A stretch of 56,396 bases of DNA. Origin: a virus. The translations under genes and the position numbers were made by a program. The stretch is from positions 1 to 56,396 of IMG/VR virus record IMGVR_UViG_3300045988_043442; one strand, written 5' to 3'. Under the pieces are notes generated by a model, which had not been told where the DNA came from, did not search any database, and was given only the letters and a program-made list of their open reading frames with translations. Below, one piece after another: positions 3,873-14,447 of the stretch (its first letter is position 1; each line of letters begins with the position of its first letter).

Positions 3873-4165
3873 TGCATTCGATACGCCCCTAGGTATGGCA
3901 TTTTGTATTCGCAATTTCGATTTTGACAATTCCCCAAATTTGGTTCAGATTTCGTTCAAATCCTACTTAAAAAATTGAAAAAATTTTCCCACAAAATATA
4001 ATGCAAAAATTTTGATACCCCCGTCATATGCAATTTTGAAATTTAAAAATCGGTTAAAAACTTTTATCAGATTTTGACCTCGATTTCATTTAGATTTACC
4101 TTGAAAAACAGTTCTGTAATTTTCACAGTTTAAAGTGCTAAAGTCCAATACCTAAGCCGTACATT

Positions 4166-4975
4166 TTACAGGGTGTATTGCTTTTTGATTCGCTTAGCCC
4201 TGTTTTCACCTTTTTCATAAGGTTTAATATAAACGACCTTGCCGCTTTGATAATGCCGGAAATGTCCGCGGACTTCCCAACAGCCGGCAAGTCGTCGCGG
4301 TTTTTTGCTTTTTATTGCGTTAGCCGTCTTATTATTCGACACTTTAAATTTTATATTATTAATTTTAATTTCTTTTACGACATTATCAACATTTTTAATA
4401 TTTTCATCTTGCGAACTTTTAGCCTTTCTTGACTTTCTTCCTTTTCTTTCAACTTCCTTAATTTCCGGGTGTTCCAAAAGCCAATTAATCCAAGTCGTAG
4501 CACGAAAAAAGAAATTTAAACATTGTCCTGCTTGCGGAACAACATTGTCTTTATAAGCTGTAAGCTCTTCAAGCTTACGCTTTTGGCGATTAAAAATCAC
4601 TAATGTTGCATCGCTGTAATCTGTTATAACCAGCTTTAAATTCCGGTTGCAAGTAACCGGAATTTCGCAAGCAATTGAACATTTCCATAGCCATTTTTTA
4701 TAAAAGTTGTCGAAAATTTCAGCTTTTAAAATCAGCATATTTTCACTCACTTCGACATCAAAAATAAAACGCTCCTGAAAGTCGTTGTAATCGGCGATAA
4801 ACACGCCATTTTTTAGAATTGGGATGTATGTTAATACATCAGAATCTTTTATATTAGGAAACCAATTGGCGGAATCTTCAAATTTAGCGGTGATACTATC
4901 AAGATTTTCGCTCTTAGCGGCTAATTCACCGCCTTTTTGCTCTCGCAATAATTGTATTTGCTTTTCTGTTCGCAT
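4166..4975 (-). CDS. Hypothetical 269-aa protein with basic C-terminal region
   Basis: ORF abuts the upstream gene with no spacer. Has a K/R-rich linker and a CWEVRGHFRHYQSGKVVYIKPY tail. No family assigned. Confidence 0.7.
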   Translation of the reverse strand: MRTEKQIQLLREQKGGELAAKSENLDSITAKFEDSANWFPNIKDSDVLTYIPILKNGVFIADYNDFQERFIFDVEVSENMLILKAEIFDNFYKKWLWKCSIACEIPVTCNRNLKLVITDYSDATLVIFNRQKRKLEELTAYKDNVVPQAGQCLNFFFRATTWINWLLEHPEIKEVERKGRKSRKAKSSQDENIKNVDNVVKEIKINNIKFKVSNNKTANAIKSKKPRRLAGCWEVRGHFRHYQSGKVVYIKPYEKGENRAKRIKKQYTL

Positions 4976-5245
4976 TTAAAAGACCTCGTTCTCTTTTTCG
5001 TACAATTTGAGAAGCTCGATAGCCGGCATCTTTACAAGTTGCTCGCCCGGTTCCAATTCAAATTCAGTATCTTTATCATCCATAATAAAATTATAGTCCG
5101 TGTAAATTGTAACTCCATAACTTTTTTTAGTAATGACTTCAACTATTAAGTTGTTGCCAAATTCCGCAATATCCTGCTTTAATTCTTTTATTAAATCTGT
5201 GCACTCAAACGACACAGACAAACCCTCGCTATTTACAAACGCCAT
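4976..5245 (-). CDS. Hypothetical 89-aa acidic protein
   Basis: ATG (MAFVNSEG) lies behind AAAGGAG. A TATAAT-containing promoter region sits upstream. Confidence 0.6.
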   Translation of the reverse strand: MAFVNSEGLSVSFECTDLIKELKQDIAEFGNNLIVEVITKKSYGVTIYTDYNFIMDDKDTEFELEPGEQLVKMPAIELLKLYEKENEVF

Positions 5246-5287
5246 GTTTTTTCTCCTTTTCAACGTTTTTTGATTTTATTATACAAC

Positions 5288-5314
5288 AAAAAAGGCTACA
5301 TTTGTAGCCTTTTT
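5288..5314 (-). terminator. Bidirectional intrinsic terminator ending the ribozyme-containing operon
   Basis: GGCTAC / GTAGCC stem flanked by an A-run and a T-run. Confidence 0.75.
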
Positions 5315-5318
5315 ATAT

Positions 5319-5669
5319 TTATTTTTCCGCAAGCTGGGTTCTTTGCTTACTTAAATATTTATCTATTGCGTCACTCGCAAAGTCTTGCAAATCACACACT
5401 TCCATGTTGCCAGCATGGTCGAGCTTGACAAAATCCGCATATTGTGGATAGCCTGTCTTGAATTTATTCAAGGCGTTTTCATCCTCGCCGAATTCTCTTA
5501 CAAAGCCAGCGAATTCGTAGCAGAAATCTGAATACTCTTCATATATCTGCTCACATTCCTCAATACCAAGGAATGTTCCATCGTCATAGTCAATGACATC
5601 ATAGTCAATATAATTTGACACGTTGCAATTAAAACCCATGTCAAATATTTTTTTAATGTTTTCATTCAT
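5319..5669 (-). CDS. Very acidic 116-aa protein
   Basis: ATG (MNENIKK) lies behind GGAGG. Rich in Asp/Glu/Tyr/Phe. Confidence 0.65.
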   Translation of the reverse strand: MNENIKKIFDMGFNCNVSNYIDYDVIDYDDGTFLGIEECEQIYEEYSDFCYEFAGFVREFGEDENALNKFKTGYPQYADFVKLDHAGNMEVCDLQDFASDAIDKYLSKQRTQLAEK

Positions 5670-5715
5670 TGATTTAACCTCCATATATTTTAATTTTATC
5701 CCTTAAAAGGAAAAA

Positions 5716-5754
5716 CCGCCGCAGGGCGTTGAACCTTGCCGACCGCCTGAACGG
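5716..5754 (-). ncRNA. GC-rich structured element, weak tRNA acceptor/T-arm mimic (or weak terminator)
   Basis: Minus strand: CCGUU(C)-AGGCGGUCGG-CAAGG-UUCAACG-CCCUG-CGGCGG-UUUUU. Same architecture as 5989..6029 but with a mismatch and wobbles. Confidence 0.35.
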
Positions 5755-5765
5755 ATGACGAAAAA

Positions 5766-5963
5766 TTAAAATCCCATTTTTTCAATAAAATATCTATCTT
5801 TATCGTTCTGATTATTGATATAATTCTTCAATGGTTCTATTTCTTCACAAATTGCGAGTTGTTTAGCTCTCCAGCTCTGACAAGTACAGTTTTTTGTTAA
5901 TGGTTCTTTCACTATATATAATTCTTTGTAGTATAGTGCAAATATAAAAATACCACCTTTCAT
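5766..5963 (-). CDS. Hypothetical 65-aa protein
   Basis: AGAGGA RBS upstream. Lies in the operon. Confidence 0.55.
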   Translation of the reverse strand: MKGGIFIFALYYKELYIVKEPLTKNCTCQSWRAKQLAICEEIEPLKNYINNQNDKDRYFIEKMGF

Positions 5964-5988
5964 TTTTTATTGTCCTCTTATGAGGTAA

Positions 5989-6029
5989 AGCAAGCCGGGG
6001 AATCGAACCCCGGAAGCGCCAACCTTGCT
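5989..6029 (-). ncRNA. tRNA-like acceptor/T-arm minihelix
   Basis: Minus strand: AGCAAG-GUUGGCGCUU-CCGGGG-UUCGAUU-CCCCGG-CUUGCU. Canonical T-loop. 6+6 bp coaxial helices. Starts 1 nt after the upstream TAA. Confidence 0.55.
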
Positions 6030-6030
6030 A

Positions 6031-6483
6031 TTATATTGCTTCTTTTTCTTTGCTAATTTCTGCCGCAATTATTCCCTGCTCAATAAAATATCGTAATGCA
6101 CTATCGCCGAAGCGTTGTATATAATATTCTGCAAGCTCCGAAGTGCTGAAAGCTTCTAAGGCTGTGCCAACATCGCTATAAATTCCGCTGCATGTTTTAG
6201 TCCTATTTGCTAGTGCTTTATCAATAGGGCTTTTCGGCTCTTCCTCTTTAACTCCTACAAGCCTATCAGCTCGCATTGTTCTAGTGTGTTCGTTTCCGCT
6301 TTCGTCGGAAATAATAACGCATTTAACGCTTTTTCCGCTCTTGGTAGGCTCTACGCTTTTGACTGTGGAAGTGTAACCAAAATTCCAAACTGTAACCATT
6401 CCCGGCTTTAATTCTGCCGCCGGGATTGCTTTTTGTGGTGTGTGTATTCCTTGTAGTTTAATTGTTTTCATAATATCAACCAT
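6031..6483 (-). CDS. Hypothetical 150-aa protein (start may be Met5 at 6471)
   Basis: ORF in the operon. No family recognised. Confidence 0.65.
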   Translation of the reverse strand: MVDIMKTIKLQGIHTPQKAIPAAELKPGMVTVWNFGYTSTVKSVEPTKSGKSVKCVIISDESGNEHTRTMRADRLVGVKEEEPKSPIDKALANRTKTCSGIYSDVGTALEAFSTSELAEYYIQRFGDSALRYFIEQGIIAAEISKEKEAI

Positions 6484-6495
6484 CCTTTCATTGTG

Positions 6496-6558
6496 TGCCC
6501 TGTCTCATCGGTGCAGGTGGGGCAGTTCCTACAGACCGCCAGAAGTGGCGGTTTCGAC
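6496..6558 (-). ncRNA. Type II hammerhead ribozyme candidate with variant core (C at position 4)
   Basis: Minus strand: GUC-GAAAC-CGCCA-CUUC-UGGCG-GUC / UGUAGG-loop-CCUGCA-CCGAUGA-GAC-A-GGGCA. Loop I UGCCC pairs with GGGCA. Confidence 0.55.
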
Positions 6559-6782
6559 TATTTCACTTGTTCTAAAATCTGTATATATATAGACGGTTTC
6601 GATTCGTCAACCTCTTTATAGACGCATCCGTTATATACTTTATTTGTTGACCCTTTGCAGGACTTGCCAAAACTCTTGCAGTTGTAGCACATTGGGTTAT
6701 ACTCCAATGCTTCAATGGCTTTTTTGCGTGCCTTGCTTCTTTCTATCTGTTCATTTGTTACAACCATTATATATTTTTCCAT
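6558..6782 (-). CDS. Hypothetical Cys-containing 74-aa protein
   Basis: ATG (MEKYIMVV) lies 8 nt behind GAGG. Confidence 0.6.
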   Translation of the reverse strand: MEKYIMVVTNEQIERSKARKKAIEALEYNPMCYNCKSFGKSCKGSTNKVYNGCVYKEVDESKPSIYIQILEQVK

Positions 6783-6805
6783 GTTCAAAACCTCGCTTTC
6801 GTTTT

Positions 6806-6871
6806 ATGGTCTGCCATCATCAGAGCCGGGAGACCATCCCACGGCTGACGCTCCAGGCGGAGCGTTTCGGC
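6806..6871 (-). ncRNA. Type II hammerhead ribozyme candidate
   Basis: Minus strand: GCC-GAAAC-GCUCC-GCCU-GGAGC-GUC / stem I hairpin-CUGAUGA-U-GGC-A-GACCAU. Loop I AUGGUC pairs with GACCAU. Confidence 0.65.
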
Positions 6872-7140
6872 TATGCTATTCTAACAACTGCATTTTTGAT
6901 ATTTGAGAAGTGAAAAAATTCCTTAGTCTCAATATTTTCAAATATTGCAGATTGTGCAAAGGTTTCGAGTGGCGTAAACGCATCACCCTTGCATGTGTAC
7001 GGGCTTTTTTCTGTATTCCAGTCAATTCCAAGTTTTCCGTTTTTCTCGTACACGCAAAAAGTCTTGTCATAGTTTCTAGTTCGTATCTCCCTATTGCTTG
7101 AATCGTATAAATGTACTTTGATTGTATCGTTTGCTTTCAT
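6871..7140 (-). CDS. Hypothetical 89-aa protein
   Basis: ORF in the operon. Its TAG stop contributes to hammerhead stem II. Confidence 0.6.
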   Translation of the reverse strand: MKANDTIKVHLYDSSNREIRTRNYDKTFCVYEKNGKLGIDWNTEKSPYTCKGDAFTPLETFAQSAIFENIETKEFFHFSNIKNAVVRIA

Positions 7141-7158
7141 ATTTAAGCCCTCTCTTTC

Positions 7159-7299
7159 TTATCTGTTTACTATTTCGTAAATCTGTGCTAATTTGCAATA
7201 TTCTTCGCATTCTGCTTGCTTCGGGCACTTGGAGCAATCATTTTCGTAAGTGCCGCAAACCTTTTCGAGTTCCTTTTCTAATTCTTTAATTCTTTCCAT
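7159..7299 (-). CDS. Hypothetical 46-aa Cys-rich protein (first cistron)
   Basis: MERIKELEKE...CSKCPKQAECEEYC. The longer track ORF reads through promoter DNA. Confidence 0.4.
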   Translation of the reverse strand: MERIKELEKELEKVCGTYENDCSKCPKQAECEEYCKLAQIYEIVNR

Positions 7300-7416
7300 A
7301 TTCTTGTACCATTTCGCCGACTGTGTTATAATCGGCTTACCTTTCTTTTTTTGATTGGTGGCGGTTCGTTCTTGGTAGGAGTGACCGCCTTTTTGTATGT
7401 CCTCCTGACAGTTATT

Positions 7417-7445
7417 ATAATAAACTAAAAACAGTTTAAAGTCAA
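7417..7445 (-). promoter_or_regulatory. Leftward sigma-70-type promoter
   Basis: Minus strand: TTGACT, 17 nt, TATTAT (overlapping a TATAAT). Confidence 0.6.
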
Positions 7446-7479
7446 TAGATAAAATAAACTTTTTTAAGATTATTTTTTG

Positions 7480-7508
7480 TTGACAAAACGAGTAAAAAAA
7501 GCTACTAT
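7480..7508 (+). promoter_or_regulatory. Rightward promoter
   Basis: TTGACA, 17 nt, TACTAT. Back-to-back with the leftward promoter. Confidence 0.6.
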
Positions 7509-7539
7509 ATATTGTATAAAACAATGAGGAGGTAACAAA

Positions 7540-7746
7540 ATGCTTGTATATAAAATTAACGTGCTGGAATCTTTAAAAGAGAGTGGATACAACAGCACAA
7601 GGATATTAAAAGAGGGGCTAATAAGTCAATCAGCAATGCAGAGGTTGCGAAAAAATGAAATGATTGGCATTAAAACTTTGGAAAAGCTGTGCGAACTTTT
7701 AGATATGCAGCCGGGAAATATCATTAAATATGTAGAAAAAGATTGA
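7540..7746 (+). CDS. Small XRE/Cro-type HTH regulator
   Basis: GAGGAGG RBS. The 68-aa pattern GYNSTRILKEGLISQSAMQRLRKNE...LEKLCELL is typical of Cro/C1 HTH. Confidence 0.65.
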   Translation: MLVYKINVLESLKESGYNSTRILKEGLISQSAMQRLRKNEMIGIKTLEKLCELLDMQPGNIIKYVEKD

Positions 7747-7769
7747 ACCAAAAAAGATTTAAAAAAGTA

Positions 7770-7798
7770 TTGACAATAAACGATAAATGGTTTATTAT
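7770..7798 (+). promoter_or_regulatory. Promoter
   Basis: TTGACA, 17 nt, TATTAT. Confidence 0.55.
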
Positions 7799-7848
7799 AA
7801 TGGTAGAAACAAAGAAAGGGCAGCCGCAAAGGCTGGATGGTTGAAAGG

Positions 7849-8040
7849 ATGAAAACAGCAGAGTTATTAAACAAGGTTGTTAAACTTGGATTTAGCAGAG
7901 AAAAGGCGCTTGCAGGCATAGACGCAAGTCTTGATGAAGCGATTGGAATAGAAAACAGAAAACCAATTGCTGATGAAGAAATAAGCGAAGAGCTGGCAAG
8001 TGATATTTTATTAGGTTTTGAATGTGAAAAAGAAAATTAA
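7849..8040 (+). CDS. Hypothetical 63-aa protein
   Basis: ATG lies behind GAAAGG. Confidence 0.5.
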   Translation: MKTAELLNKVVKLGFSREKALAGIDASLDEAIGIENRKPIADEEISEELASDILLGFECEKEN

Positions 8041-8067
8041 TCAAGAAAGGTTAAAGGTGTGAATATT

Positions 8068-8334
8068 ATGGCAGTGGCAAAAACATGGAAAGTCTACGGA
8101 GTAGATGGACACAGGCAAAGAGAGAGCTTCGGAAAGTCTTATAAATACGATTTTTCAGAAGGTACAGACGTCAGAATTATTGAAGTTGACAACTTCGACA
8201 AAACAGGCACAAATGAATACTCAATTATTCGCATTACTAGAAACAGCTCTGAAGAATGTGAAGAGGAATTACGCGGACAGCTTTCGGATGGAATTTTTGA
8301 AAATTCCAGAGTTGGGAAAGTTGTGGAAATTTAA
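8068..8334 (+). CDS. Hypothetical 88-aa protein
   Basis: ORF followed by a strong terminator. Confidence 0.55.
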   Translation: MAVAKTWKVYGVDGHRQRESFGKSYKYDFSEGTDVRIIEVDNFDKTGTNEYSIIRITRNSSEECEEELRGQLSDGIFENSRVGKVVEI

Positions 8335-8350
8335 AATATATATTTTAAGT

Positions 8351-8379
8351 GGTGTATAACAGATATACACCGCTTTTTT
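8351..8379 (+). terminator. Intrinsic terminator
   Basis: GGTGTATA / TATACACC stem, then GCTTTTTT. Confidence 0.8.
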
Positions 8380-8538
8380 AATGCCTATTGATTAATTATA
8401 TTTATTGTGTTATTATATTGCCAATAATTAAATATATAAGATTTACACCCGATAATATTAATATTGTTATCGGGTTATTTTTATGTTATTAGTATATATT
8501 ATAATAAGCTGGATAAGCTCCAGCAGAAAGGGGAACAC

Positions 8539-9252
8539 ATGGAGAAAGTGCAAGAAACACCAGAAAGTCAAGAAATTTTTGAAAATGAAATTGATATGTA
8601 TTTCAAACAATTTTGCACAGATGAAAACATTGAAGATATGGCAGCGGCTCCGCAATCCCTTTTTTACGCCGCTTTAATTTATGTATATAATAATACTTTT
8701 AAAGGCACTAATAGATTAAAGCTAAAAGGTAAATTACAGGGATATAATAATAATAATTATAATAATCAATATAGTAATATAAATAATAGTAATTGTAATA
8801 GTTATAATTATGAGTACTTAAATTATATAGCAGATTATTATATATATATGTGTTATAAGTATAATAAAATATGTACTATATCAGGATATTGTAAATTAAC
8901 CGGTATAAATGAAGTGGTTATATATAATTGGGCTAATGAACGAACAAAAACGGATAGACTAAGTACATCGGCTTATGATTTGTGGGAAAAATTATCAAAA
9001 GATTACGAATCCAGCGGAGAGGCTCGGCTCTGGTCCGGTAAGAACCCAGTCGGGCAACTTGCGGTTATGAATCGCCGCTTTGGTTGGAATCTTCCCGGTG
9101 TCAGCAGGGAAAGCACCTCAAAGTATGTTAAAACAGCCGCAGACCTTCCGCGGCTCGGACCATCTGGAAATGCTCAAGGCTCTGATGTTCGTCAAATTGC
9201 ACAACAAGAAATCATTGTGCAAGATGTACAAGAAATCCCACAAAGTCAGTAA
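8539..9252 (+). CDS. Terminase small subunit-like DNA-binding protein with an Asn/Tyr-rich insert
   Basis: AAGGGG RBS. HTH-like ISGYCKLTGINEVVIYNW. C-terminal GKNPVGQLAVMNRRFGW resembles the TerS tail motif. Confidence 0.45.
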   Translation: MEKVQETPESQEIFENEIDMYFKQFCTDENIEDMAAAPQSLFYAALIYVYNNTFKGTNRLKLKGKLQGYNNNNYNNQYSNINNSNCNSYNYEYLNYIADYYIYMCYKYNKICTISGYCKLTGINEVVIYNWANERTKTDRLSTSAYDLWEKLSKDYESSGEARLWSGKNPVGQLAVMNRRFGWNLPGVSRESTSKYVKTAADLPRLGPSGNAQGSDVRQIAQQEIIVQDVQEIPQSQ

Positions 9253-9380
9253 ACAAGCGGATTGTAGCGTTTTTGATATGCAATAACATCACTTCGCGAA
9301 AGTCGGGTTTGACGAAGTGATTAAAACGAACATACGAACGCCAAACAGCTTTAAGCCTAGCAAACAAGCGGATTGTAGCG
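9251..9380. repeat. Two perfect 19-bp direct repeats flanking a 9-bp-stem hairpin
   Basis: AAACAAGCGGATTGTAGCG at 9251..9269 and 9362..9380. ATCACTTCG / CGAAGTGAT at 9288..9296 and 9313..9321. Confidence 0.8.
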
Positions 9381-9772
9381 AATCCATTAAATTTACGCAT
9401 AAAAGTAATATTGGCAATTGCACAGTTCTTATTGCACGCCGCAAATGGCTTTGGGGGTGGGGGTTAGAACATATGTTCGATTTTGCCTTACTAAGTCCCT
9501 CAAATTACGGCAAAAACAAAAAGCCCCTTGCATATGTTTTAAATATAATATATATAATTTTATCAACAACCCATATATTATATATAATTATTGATTACAG
9601 GTCTATATAAATTAATTAATAAACCCACTATACAAATCTGATAAATAGGTGTATAATAGACACATCTTAATTAATCACAAGATATTCAATGAATACACAC
9701 ATCAAAACGGCTAATTCAGCCGAGTAAATTCCAAAAAATTTCAAAAAAATAAAAAAGAGTTAGGAGTTATAA

Positions 9773-10557: not shown

Positions 10558-10653
10558 TATTTAATGCCGTGTCTGACCAATGCGTATAAATGGCTACAAA
10601 GAATAGTACACTGCGGCAGTGATGAATATATGTCAGAGAATAAATCACAATTT

Positions 10654-10725
10654 TGCCCTTTCGCCAAGCGGTAAGGCACAGGAGTTTGATTCCTGTATGC
10701 GTTGGTTCGAGTCCAACAAGGGCAG
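10654..10725 (+). tRNA. tRNA-Gln (anticodon UUG)
   Basis: Hand-folded 72-nt cloverleaf. U1:A72 acceptor, anticodon loop GUUUGAU, T-loop UUCGAGU. Confidence 0.85.
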
Positions 10726-10939
10726 TTCAGCTTACTTTTTATTGACAGTCTATCTTTGCAACCAAGATGGACCTCCTTTCAATATTTACCTCTTTGGATT
10801 TGTTCAGTTAAGGGTAGTGCAAGACTATCCGAGAGGTTTCACCTCGCACAGAGGTGTGAAATTCAACTTATCAAGGATTTTTCTTAATGCCCCCGACTAT
10901 TTATTACAAAATTCTTGGTAGCCGTTACAGGCGGCATAT

Positions 10940-11023
10940 GCCGTGTGTCCGGTTGGTCGAGGAAGCAGTCTTGAAAACTGTCTGGGCGTAAAAGCCTCCG
11001 GGGTTCGATTCCCTGACACGGCG
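10940..11023 (+). tRNA. tRNA-Ser (anticodon UGA), long variable arm
   Basis: Acceptor GCCGUGU / ACACGGC, anticodon loop CUUGAAA, variable arm, T-loop UUCGAUU. The D-arm register is slightly irregular. Confidence 0.75.
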
Positions 11024-11097
11024 TTCTCACATGTAAACTGAAAAGAGAAACAAGTTGCTGGTTATCTGTATTTCTCTAAAACCACCTACATGTGAGT

Positions 11098-11238
11098 TGG
11101 TGTGTATGCAAGTGGGTAAGCAACGTGTAGCTGGTAACAAACATATATTTAAAAATGTTTGAGCCGTGCTTATGGGTTTAATTCTCAAAAACGTAAGGAC
11201 GTATGTCTTATGTGCGGTTCGATTCCGCACCACATCAA
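11098..11238 (+). ncRNA. Split tRNA-like RNA: acceptor plus D-arm, about 90-nt insert, then T-arm plus acceptor
   Basis: UGGUGUG pairs with CACAUCA, including a G:U. D-arm-like UGC-AAGUGGGUAA-GCA. T-arm GUGCGG-UUCGAUU-CCGCAC. Discriminator A. Confidence 0.4.
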
Positions 11239-11360
11239 TTACAACAAACTAGGTTAGCTACCGAAAAGCACTTCCGCTGTGCCTGTTTGTTGTTTTTATC
11301 AATTAAGCGGAGTATGTATCACAGGCATACATAAATAATATCAAGCGGAGGTATTCAATT

Positions 11361-12281
11361 ATGGCAACAATTAGAGTGCATAAAACAAAAAATTACACAG
11401 TTATGAGTAATACTCATTTAAGAGATAAGAATTTAAGTCTGAAAGCAAAAGGACTATTGTCTGTAATGCTTTCATTGCCCGATAATTGGGATTATTCAAT
11501 AGCTGGGTTAGTTGCAATAAGTAAAGAGAATGAAACAGCTGTTAAATCGGCTTTAAATGAGTTAAGGGATAATAATTATGTTGTGGTTACTAAGGAAAAC
11601 CCGACAAAAAGCAATGGTGGAAGAATAAAGTACACCTACGAGGTTTACGAAGAACCATATAAACAGAAAATAGAAAAACAAGATACAGAAAATCTAGGGG
11701 TTGAATGTCAACAGGTAGAAAACCACGGACAATTAAATACTAATGAATTAAGTACTGATGAATTAAATATTAATAAACAAAATACTGAAAGATCAATTAC
11801 TAATAAGGACTATACATCAATTAACATTGATGGAGAGGTACATACATCGTTTTCAGAGAAACCGACGGCAAGAGCTGTCACAAGAGATGAAATGTTGCTT
11901 AAAGAAAAAGATATGGTTGATAGGTTCAATAACATCTGTGACAATGACATAGATAATTCAGCTATATGTGATTGCGTTAAGGATGGATTTAAGATGTATA
12001 TGCAGTTATATGAAATCTATTTCCATAAAGTACACCCAATACTTACAGATAAGACATTAAAGAATGTATGTTTTGTACTATCAACTATCACAGATACAGA
12101 ACACGGACATTTCGACGCTGACGCTATATACGAAACAGACGATAAGGGCATTACAGTTTTACAGAGAATGATTAACGACCATTTCATCAGAGAACATAGA
12201 GAAAGCACCAACTACTCAATAACACATTTTGCCAATGCTGAATATCTTAGCAAGCTGGCAAATGGATTTATAGAGATGTAA
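11361..12281 (+). CDS. Winged-helix DNA-binding protein (replication-initiator/DnaD-like N-terminus)
   Basis: YTVMSNTHLRDKNLSLKAKGLLSVMLSLPDNWDYSIAGL...LNELRDNNYV pattern. Confidence 0.55.
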   Translation: MATIRVHKTKNYTVMSNTHLRDKNLSLKAKGLLSVMLSLPDNWDYSIAGLVAISKENETAVKSALNELRDNNYVVVTKENPTKSNGGRIKYTYEVYEEPYKQKIEKQDTENLGVECQQVENHGQLNTNELSTDELNINKQNTERSITNKDYTSINIDGEVHTSFSEKPTARAVTRDEMLLKEKDMVDRFNNICDNDIDNSAICDCVKDGFKMYMQLYEIYFHKVHPILTDKTLKNVCFVLSTITDTEHGHFDADAIYETDDKGITVLQRMINDHFIREHRESTNYSITHFANAEYLSKLANGFIEM

Positions 12282-14258: not shown

Positions 14259-14447
14259 ATGAAAATATCAGAGATGAATAACTGCATTGAGAAAATGCGG
14301 GAGTGCTACAAGTTTGATGATGATAAAACGGAAATACGGATTGGGGATATGATGAGTGGAAGTAACAGATATGTAACTGTCTGTGCAAGGGACGAAAACG
14401 GAACACAGATTGAAATGACAAGGCGTGCGGATGAATTAGAACAATAA
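14259..14447 (+). CDS. Hypothetical protein
   Basis: ORF in a tight co-directional array. Confidence 0.45.
   Translation: MKISEMNNCIEKMRECYKFDDDKTEIRIGDMMSGSNRYVTVCARDENGTQIEMTRRADELEQ

Follow-up and report, generated by a model that had tools for sequence, protein, structure and literature searches.

A conserved type II hammerhead ribozyme between two small genes of a temperate Clostridia phage, with a probable role in cutting a leftward polycistronic mRNA

What does a phage gain from a self-cleaving RNA placed between two of its small genes? A 2019 review describes the purpose of bacterial and phage hammerheads as still undefined (PMC6765202), and a locus on the minus strand of the viral DNA analysed here (a stretch of 56,396 nucleotides, called the window below) raises the question anew. 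The window encodes a large terminase, portal, major head protein, tape measure, tail proteins, endolysin and integrase together with an SbcC-like protein and RecT, carries tRNA-Gln, tRNA-Ser and an int-alpA RNA, and is a temperate tailed phage of gut Clostridia, mainly Lachnospiraceae. A megablast search of positions 4000-9500 against 50,697 GenBank phages gave no match, indicating a phage without a close cultured relative. The element, here called HH1, is a hammerhead ribozyme whose structure and intergenic position are both conserved. We consider that it functions as a type II hammerhead that would cut a leftward polycistronic mRNA in vivo, with consequences for the stability and translation of the pieces, at a probability of roughly 85%.

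A type II hammerhead at 6806-6871 on the minus strand had been proposed in an earlier note on this DNA, which suggested checking it against the Rfam hammerhead models with Infernal. The Infernal search matched RF02276 (Hammerhead_II) over its full length (model positions 1-66 of 66) at 63.3 bits, above the gathering score of 37 bits, with an E value of 7.9e-11 that covers the whole 56-kb window, both strands and 4227 Rfam families. The proposal is borne out by this match and by the covariation described below. HH1, at 6805-6872, is the sole hammerhead that Rfam reports across the window, even at E ≤ 1, and it scores 93.7 bits with a covariance model built from its own relatives (model R1). Its G+C content is 63%, compared with about 37% for the window.

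Read 5' to 3' from 6872 to 6805, the HH1 RNA is A-GCC-GAA-ACGCUCC-GCCU-GGAGCGU-C/AGCCG-U-GG-GAUGGUCU-CC-CGGCU-CUGAUGA-U-GGC-A-GACCAU, in which the slash marks the predicted cleavage site. The 3' strand of stem II (G11.3, C11.2 and C11.1, that is G6871, C6870 and C6869) is followed by the core residues G12 A13 A14 (6868-6866) and by the stem III hairpin (6865-6848), whose 7 base pairs run from A15.1-U16.1 (6865 with 6848) to C6859-G6854 and are closed by the loop GCCU. Cleavage is predicted between C17 (6847) and A1.1 (6846). The stem I hairpin (6846-6824) consists of 5 base pairs, a bulged U6841 and 2 further pairs (G6840-C6829 and G6839-C6830) below a loop I of 8 nucleotides (6838-6831), which holds the pseudoknot strand 6837-6832. 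The core box CUGAUGA, from C3 to A9 (6823-6817), is separated by an extra unpaired U (6816), an insertion in the Rfam model, from the 5' strand of stem II (G10.1, G10.2 and C10.3, that is G6815, G6814 and C6813), and a linker, A6812, leads to the 3' tail GACCAU (6811-6806), a perfect six-nucleotide complement of AUGGUC in loop I. The element order, the core box, the 7-bp stem III, C17 and the A15.1-U16.1 pair had all been read exactly in the earlier note, and its cleavage position agrees with the Rfam alignment. Its stem I had to be redrawn in part: the hairpin and the bulged U stand, but the three upper G-C pairs are impossible, as no more than three C residues are available, and 2 G-C pairs remain with a G6838-U6831 wobble at best on top.

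The order of these parts, stem II (3' strand), GAA, stem III, C17, stem I, CUGAUGA and stem II (5' strand), with stems I and III closed by loops and stem II open, is the topology of RF02276. The core features of the family are all present in HH1 (CUGAUGA, GAA, A15.1-U16.1 and a residue other than G, here C, at position 17), and the pseudoknot between loop I and the nucleotides directly 3' of stem II, for which at least 4 bp are asked, has 6 bp, in agreement with the published description (PMC3088659). The G10.1-C11.1 pair (G6815-C6869) can form and is invariant in relatives, with U6816 standing between A9 and G10.1. HH1 thus fits each testable feature of RF02276 except strict adjacency of A9 and G10.1, which is interrupted by the conserved U6816. 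It shares with the family the element order, core, closed stems I and III, short open stem II, pseudoknot and bacterial or phage origin, and differs from it only by this extra U and by a sixth, non-conserved pseudoknot pair.

The minimum free energy structure of the isolated 70-nt RNA is the three-stem hammerhead (−25.8 kcal/mol), to which the pseudoknot duplex of 6 bp would add about −6.5 kcal/mol. With a few flanking nucleotides, however, the nested minimum free energy fold is a non-hammerhead structure in which the tail is paired to loop I and to the 3' strand of stem I, and in a 261-nt context nested folding also favors non-hammerhead alternatives. We attribute the result with short flanks to the nested algorithm, which cannot model a pseudoknot. 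In type II hammerheads with a pseudoknot between loop I and the tail, cleavage is fast at 0.5 mM Mg2+, and this speed at physiological Mg2+ depends on the pseudoknot (PMC3088659).

Comparative evidence came from a pattern derived from HH1, which matched at least 119 IMG/VR viral contigs and 14 bacterial assemblies, the latter nearly all from gut Clostridia, mainly Lachnospiraceae (Acetatifactor, Roseburia, Mediterraneibacter, Schaedlerella and Ruminococcus). Covariation was scored over 92 distinct sub-family sequences from the viral contigs with an explicit structure that includes the pseudoknot. Standard pairs filled 94.6% of the cells of the proposed pairs, compared with 31-42% when the partners were slid by 1-3 columns, compensatory double changes were found in 11 pairs (4 in stem III, 3 in stem I and 4 in the pseudoknot), and none of 500 column shuffles reached the observed values. 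Pairing was kept at 99.5% in stem III, 99.7% in stem I and 99.6% in stem II, where the only changes were between GC and GU. The residues G12 A13 A14, the A15.1-U16.1 pair and C17 were invariant. The perfect match of the tail to loop I seen in the earlier note is correct for HH1, but only five of its six pairs are conserved among relatives: the loop and tail strands vary together (GGUC/GACC, AGCC/GGCU, GAUC/GAUC and AGUC/GACU), while the sixth pair, A6837-U6806, was found in only 4 of the 92.

The extra U and the 3-bp stem II had been listed as deviations. Both are present, but they are typical of the sub-family. A stem II of 2-3 bp is common in natural hammerheads (PMC3088659), and every one of the 92 aligned relatives has the extra U. 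Two further unique sequences lack it and one has it twice, indicating a tolerated bulge and not part of a helix. De la Pena and Flores (2001), as cited in PMC2632901, describe a natural U4C viroid hammerhead and an extra core nucleotide in the CChMVd (+) hammerhead. These viroid variants are precedents for the extra residue of HH1 and for the U4C change of a second ribozyme described below, but they belong to type III ribozymes. The extra core residue of the CChMVd (+) hammerhead reportedly lies between A9 and G10.1.

HH1 occupies the gap between two genes on its own strand. The stop codon of the upstream gene (89 aa, 6871-7140, minus strand), whose product has no Pfam or PHROG match, is the UAG at 6873-6871. 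As had been pointed out before, its G (G6871) belongs to stem II, of which it is the outermost residue. The downstream gene (6558-6782, minus strand) encodes a Cys-rich protein of 74 aa without a Pfam match and with only a weak match among the PHROGs, to a family of unknown function. Its start codon ATG lies at 6782-6780, and its ribosome-binding site (RBS) GAGG (6794-6791) is 11 nt from the 3' end of HH1. A consensus scan located a sigma-70-like promoter site, TTGACT-17-TATTAT (7417-7445, minus strand), upstream of both genes, and a bidirectional hairpin resembling an intrinsic terminator, with an 11-bp stem and U-runs on both strands, lies downstream at 5289-5314. HH1 is thus located between a promoter-like site and a terminator-like hairpin on the strand of its flanking ORFs, and the leftward early operon that contains it probably runs from 7445-7417 to 5314-5289. 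This operon diverges from a gene for a Cro/C1-type HTH protein (7540-7746, plus strand).

The 74-aa gene is followed by HH2 (6496-6559, minus strand), a further type II hammerhead that belongs to another sub-family, so that two ribozymes on the same strand bracket this gene. HH2 was recognised only through synteny with relatives. Its RNA reads AGUC-GAA-ACCGCCA-CUUC-UGGCGGU-C/UGUAGG-AACUGCCCCA-CCUGCA-CCGAUGA-GAC-A-GGGCA, with predicted cleavage at C6534/U6533 and a 5-bp pseudoknot between 6524-6520 and 6500-6496, and its start lies inside the UAG (6560-6558) of the 74-aa gene (it is also given as 1 nt past the stop). The core box is CCGAUGA, with U4 changed to C at 6510. HH2 was not reported in a permissive Rfam search of the 3.8 kb from 3900 to 7700 at E ≤ 10 and scored 11.6 bits with model R1. 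An intact cousin in a related locus (L133) reached 34.7 bits with RF02276, just below the gathering score, and only U4C and one base of the tail set HH2 apart from a relative whose core is canonical. A search of the window with R1 gave no further credible hammerhead; the stems are missing from its matches at 14272 and 42794, which are spurious.

The C4 core is a recurrent feature of one sub-family. It was found in 36 of the 296 hammerhead copies recovered from the loci, all of them HH2-type (36 of 113, compared with 0 of 183 for the HH1 type; Fisher p = 1.5e-17), and on several stem III and stem I backgrounds, also beside near-identical U4 copies. Homologues of the 74-aa gene provided 56 synteny-anchored loci; HH2 is present in every one, with U4 in 45 and C4 in 11, and in nearly all of them the gene stands between two hammerheads, an arrangement thus kept in more than 50 related phages. 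Among 27 distinct C4 sequences, 99.1% of cells were paired, and 5 pairs had compensatory changes. Because the C4 copies are paired, covarying and anchored by synteny, they are not decaying, and we reject the view of HH2 as a decayed pseudo-ribozyme. By analogy, the C4 form is most likely a slowed but functional ribozyme, since a U4C viroid variant has strongly reduced activity in vitro that is nevertheless sufficient in vivo (Perreault et al., PMC3088659). As U4C is expected to slow cleavage by HH2, release of the 3' end of the 74-aa message may be inefficient in this phage.

In hammerhead cleavage the chain is cut 3' of position 17 when the 2'-OH attacks, which leaves a 2',3'-cyclic phosphate and a 5'-OH. 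Applied to HH1, once the 3' tail is transcribed, stems I and III and the 3-bp stem II would assemble around the CUGAUGA/GAA core, the pseudoknot between loop I and the tail would lock stems I and II side by side, and the 2'-OH of C6847 would attack the adjacent phosphate. The 5' product would carry the 89-aa ORF with its stop codon intact and end in the stem III hairpin and a 2',3'-cyclic phosphate, and the G+C-rich 7-bp stem III could plausibly block 3' exonucleases. The 3' product would begin with a 5'-OH and the stem I/pseudoknot structure, followed about 11 nt later by the RBS and the 74-aa gene. With nothing but the 3-bp stem II joining them after cleavage, the two products should dissociate. 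The most likely outcome is that HH1 cuts the multi-gene mRNA into single-gene pieces, and the placing of HH1 and HH2 around the 74-aa gene suggests that single-gene mRNAs would be released or uncoupled, with stability and translation independent of the neighboring sequence. A partition-function model predicted that the RBS of the 74-aa gene is unpaired with a probability of 0.06 in the uncleaved RNA (261-nt context) and of 0.80 after cleavage, which carries little weight because the model lacks a term for the pseudoknot and was run for a single context.

Comparable behavior is known from other phage-associated hammerheads. Prophage clusters placed around single genes cleave during transcription and in E. 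coli (PMC3088659), and three type II hammerheads near phage genes of Desulfovibrio vulgaris cleave in vivo as detected by cyPhyRNA-seq (PMC8782182). The D. vulgaris ribozymes are like HH1 in being type II and having phage genes as neighbors, but they belong to a different host phylum and are single loci without a bracketing pair. Perreault et al. (2011) noted the abundance of type II hammerheads near prophage genes, found that the identity of the flanked genes is not constant, and proposed a role in the processing of long phage transcripts (PMC3088659). Clusters in Clostridium scindens, Azorhizobium caulinodans and Agrobacterium tumefaciens (at ardA) likewise consist of two ribozymes around one small gene (PMC3088659). 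The published prophage clusters and the window are alike in arrangement, each with a polycistronic phage transcript and with flanked genes that vary. The host clade also overlaps with that of our phage in one case, as C. scindens is a member of the Lachnospiraceae. The window is unlike the published clusters in that the flanked genes are ORFans, one partner carries U4C, and a tRNA-like minihelix can replace the ribozyme. On newer phage type II hammerheads we found no literature beyond Perreault 2011, the 2019 review and the cyPhyRNA-seq study.

The minihelix (5989-6029, minus strand), recognised from its sequence and fold, has an acceptor-like stem AGCAAG/CUUGCU and a T-arm with GGUUCGAUUCC. 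In the window it directly follows the stop codon of the next gene, in the next intergenic gap of the HH1 operon. ARAGORN did not call it as a tRNA in the window. The exact T-arm 19-mer was found on the ribozyme strand in 88 of 202 related loci. The stems of the minihelix hardly vary among relatives. It is a candidate processing site for RNase P/Z. In one relative (L185) such a minihelix stands in place of HH1 upstream of the 74-aa gene, and the exchange of HH1 for a plausible RNase P/Z substrate argues that this slot needs an RNA cleavage site. The equivalent junction lacks a ribozyme in two other relatives (L131 and L164), so the ribozyme is not essential. In a further one (L183), a promoter is fused to a 3' remnant of HH1.

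Genes at these junctions are shuffled. A hammerhead stands in the same place behind 12 of the 13 homologues of the 89-aa gene in viral contigs; in 11 cases it is HH1 and in one (L126) a copy of another sub-family. The proteins flanking the 296 ribozyme copies fall into 64 families that are freely combined. Downstream of the 89-aa family, beyond HH1, at least 10 different gene families occur; the 74-aa gene has at least 8 families upstream of it and at least 15 downstream, beyond HH2. Neither the operon proteins nor ten recurrent ribozyme-flanked protein families yielded an informative function in PHROG and Pfam scans, and the ten families lack a recognisable domain. Ribozyme sequences remain about 88% identical while the neighboring genes change. 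A start codon follows the core by 13-40 nt in nearly all copies.

Such mosaic junctions raise the possibility that the ribozyme is kept mainly because it makes the expression of each small gene autonomous and independent of context, its roughly 70 nt of DNA serving at the same time as a homology patch for cassette exchange. This idea, which refines the processing model without replacing it, we hold tentatively. It accords with the 64 flanking families and the varied partners of the 89-aa and 74-aa genes, with ribozymes that stay alike as their neighbors change, with the L183 junction falling inside HH1, and with an RBS predicted to be accessible after cleavage. However, any conserved intergenic sequence could give rise to such a mosaic, as could illegitimate recombination with subsequent selection, and the insulating effect depends on a single thermodynamic prediction. 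RiboJ-like insulators and tRNA-punctuated transcripts provide models in which a self-cleaving or tRNA-like unit between cistrons standardises the downstream 5' end. Those systems are engineered or mitochondrial and imply no homology to HH1, whose own insulation is only putative. Extended to whole operons, the same idea would make the early accessory operons series of swappable punctuation modules (hammerhead sub-families and the minihelix) that produce single-gene mRNAs and act as joints for cassette exchange, with U4C as a deliberate slowing; we regard this as possible but doubtful. If true, the modules would be two or three hammerhead sub-families and the minihelix, each reaching from the UAG of an ORFan gene to just before the next RBS, and the slowed ribozyme, about one third of the copies in its sub-family, would tune how far neighboring messages get separated.

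The stop codon inside stem II suggests a second function, in which a ribosome at the UAG would control folding of the ribozyme, so that cleavage would be a readout of upstream-gene translation or a response to it. The overlap is kept in 256 of the 296 copies (86%), of which 245 end an ORF of at least 30 aa, and the stop codon is only ever UAG, never UAA or UGA. From its known size, the footprint of a ribosome would span 6871 to about 6856. A ribosome terminating on the overlapping UAG would thus cover stem II and half of stem III, and folding would compete with translation. The A-G of the stop codon, however, is the ribozyme consensus at model positions 1-2, so the overlap may merely reflect gene packing; moreover, 40 of the 296 copies lack it, and nothing points to regulation. 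Clostridia belong to the Firmicutes, in which transcription often outruns translation, and the ribozyme can therefore fold before the ribosome reaches the overlapping UAG. We judge control of cleavage by translation to be unlikely.

Two ribozymes around one gene also permit a geometry in which HH1 and HH2 cut free a 313-nt RNA (6846-6534) and a composite hammerhead ligates it into a circular mRNA for the 74-aa protein. The 3' half of HH1 and the 5' half of HH2 can indeed pair (G6815-C6556, G6814-U6557 and C6813-G6558), and the bracketing is kept in the more than 50 phages mentioned above, but complementarity over 3 bp is a test of almost no statistical power. 'Splicing' would require the reciprocal composite, which contains an A-C mismatch. 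Circular or spliced products were not seen in comparable clusters (Perreault et al., PMC3088659). Furthermore, HH2 of the window has U4C and would cleave poorly, and other junctions carry one ribozyme or a tRNA-like element, making circularisation very improbable. Least credible of all is that HH1 is a chance match or a decayed, inactive relic, for which the extra U after A9 is a formal departure from the core consensus: chance is effectively refuted by the RF02276 match (E 7.9e-11) and by the compensatory changes seen in every long helix and in the pseudoknot, and the strict positional conservation and the G+C-rich island in an A+T-rich genome also speak against this reading.

Taken together, processing of a polycistronic transcript by HH1 is the reading that we prefer. 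HH1 itself is ordinary: any Rfam-based annotation would label it, and the bracketing of genes by hammerheads in prophages was reported in 2011. For ribozyme specialists, the locus offers a second ribozyme that is invisible to Rfam, a maintained U4C allele, a tRNA-like element that shares a slot with a hammerhead, and mosaic gene junctions. The phage group to which HH1 belongs is material for the open question of what bacterial and phage hammerheads are for. Within it, the same ribozymes link many different genes in hundreds of natural replicates, a tRNA-like element can substitute for a ribozyme, and U4C, normally a deleterious core change, is common in one sub-family and absent in the other; such replicates make the hypotheses of processing, insulation and modularity directly testable.

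HH1, the type II hammerhead lying on the minus strand between the 89-aa and 74-aa genes of the leftward operon, is accompanied by a second hammerhead of the same type, HH2 (window positions 6496-6559, minus strand), which follows directly 3' of the 74-aa gene stop, so that a single gene is bracketed by two ribozymes. Reading of the sequence gave HH2 a CCGAUGA core with a U4 to C substitution at position 6510; HH2 had no Rfam match in the window and could be identified via its relatives only. Across the related loci L001-L188, U4 to C was found in 36 of the 113 copies belonging to the HH2-type sub-families versus none of 183 HH1-type copies (p = 1.5e-17), with examples at around 4223-4292 in L158-L160, L164, L170-L171 and L177-L180. 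Because the substitution recurs on several stem backgrounds in these loci, and because copies carrying C4 remain 99.1% base-paired with compensatory changes, we suggest that it represents a tolerated or selected slow allele rather than decay. Other core variants occur among the aligned relatives and at loci L016, L035, L101, L186 and L187. Single copies have UUGAUGA, CUGAUGG or CUAAUGA cores, and these may be inactive. Five copies have a CUGACGA core, its U7 to C change falling at a core position known as variable.

Other structured elements occur in the window. The leftward operon's presumed 5' leader contains a hairpin of the form GGCGGU...ACCGCC (7350-7390, minus strand; z-score −2.4), located just 3' of an AGGAGG without a start codon behind it. 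A G+C-rich intergenic stretch, CAGGCGGUCGGCAAGGUUCAACGCCCUGCGGCGGUUUUU (5690-5765, minus strand), separates the 65-aa gene from the 121-aa gene in the operon that holds HH1 and contains a T-loop-like GGUUCAA as well as a short hairpin with a U-run behind it; the stretch had no Rfam match and a fold z-score of only −0.7. At 5289-5314, a perfect 11-bp hairpin with A-runs and U-runs at its sides can be read from either strand as an intrinsic terminator, a predicted boundary between two transcription units of the minus-strand block. Several weak Rfam sRNA matches at this hairpin were judged spurious. On the plus strand, a cluster at 10653-11308 comprises tRNA-Gln(UUG), tRNA-Ser(UGA), a further isolated T-loop motif (GGTTCGATTCC, 11216-11226) and an int-alpA RNA (RF02996, 45.3 bits), and is positioned immediately upstream of a replication-initiator-like gene (11361-12281).

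The 150-aa gene ends in a TAA stop, and directly behind it, ahead of the next gene, lies a tRNA-like minihelix (5989-6029, minus strand) composed of an acceptor-like stem (AGCAAG/CUUGCU) and a T-arm with the canonical loop GGUUCGAUUCC. It was not called as a tRNA by ARAGORN and showed a weak Rfam match to the tRNA-like mascRNA. Its exact T-arm is present in 88 of 202 related loci, and the minihelix is a candidate RNase P/Z site.

The genes flanking the ribozymes are shuffled combinatorially, with 64 protein families surrounding the 296 ribozyme copies in all related loci recovered, and the family of the 89-aa gene alone has at least 10 different downstream partners. A Pfam scan found a domain in none of the 10 recurrent flanking protein families. 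In locus L185, this tRNA-like minihelix (3915-3965) occupies the exact place of HH1 in other loci, between an upstream UAG and the ribosome-binding site of the 74-aa gene. In L183 (3930-3990), HH1 is reduced to its 3' remnant (CUGAUGAUGGCAGACCAG...), which is joined to a TTGACA-17-TATAAT promoter. These two arrangements provide evidence that ribozyme and minihelix modules are interchangeable, and that junctions can fall within the ribozyme itself.
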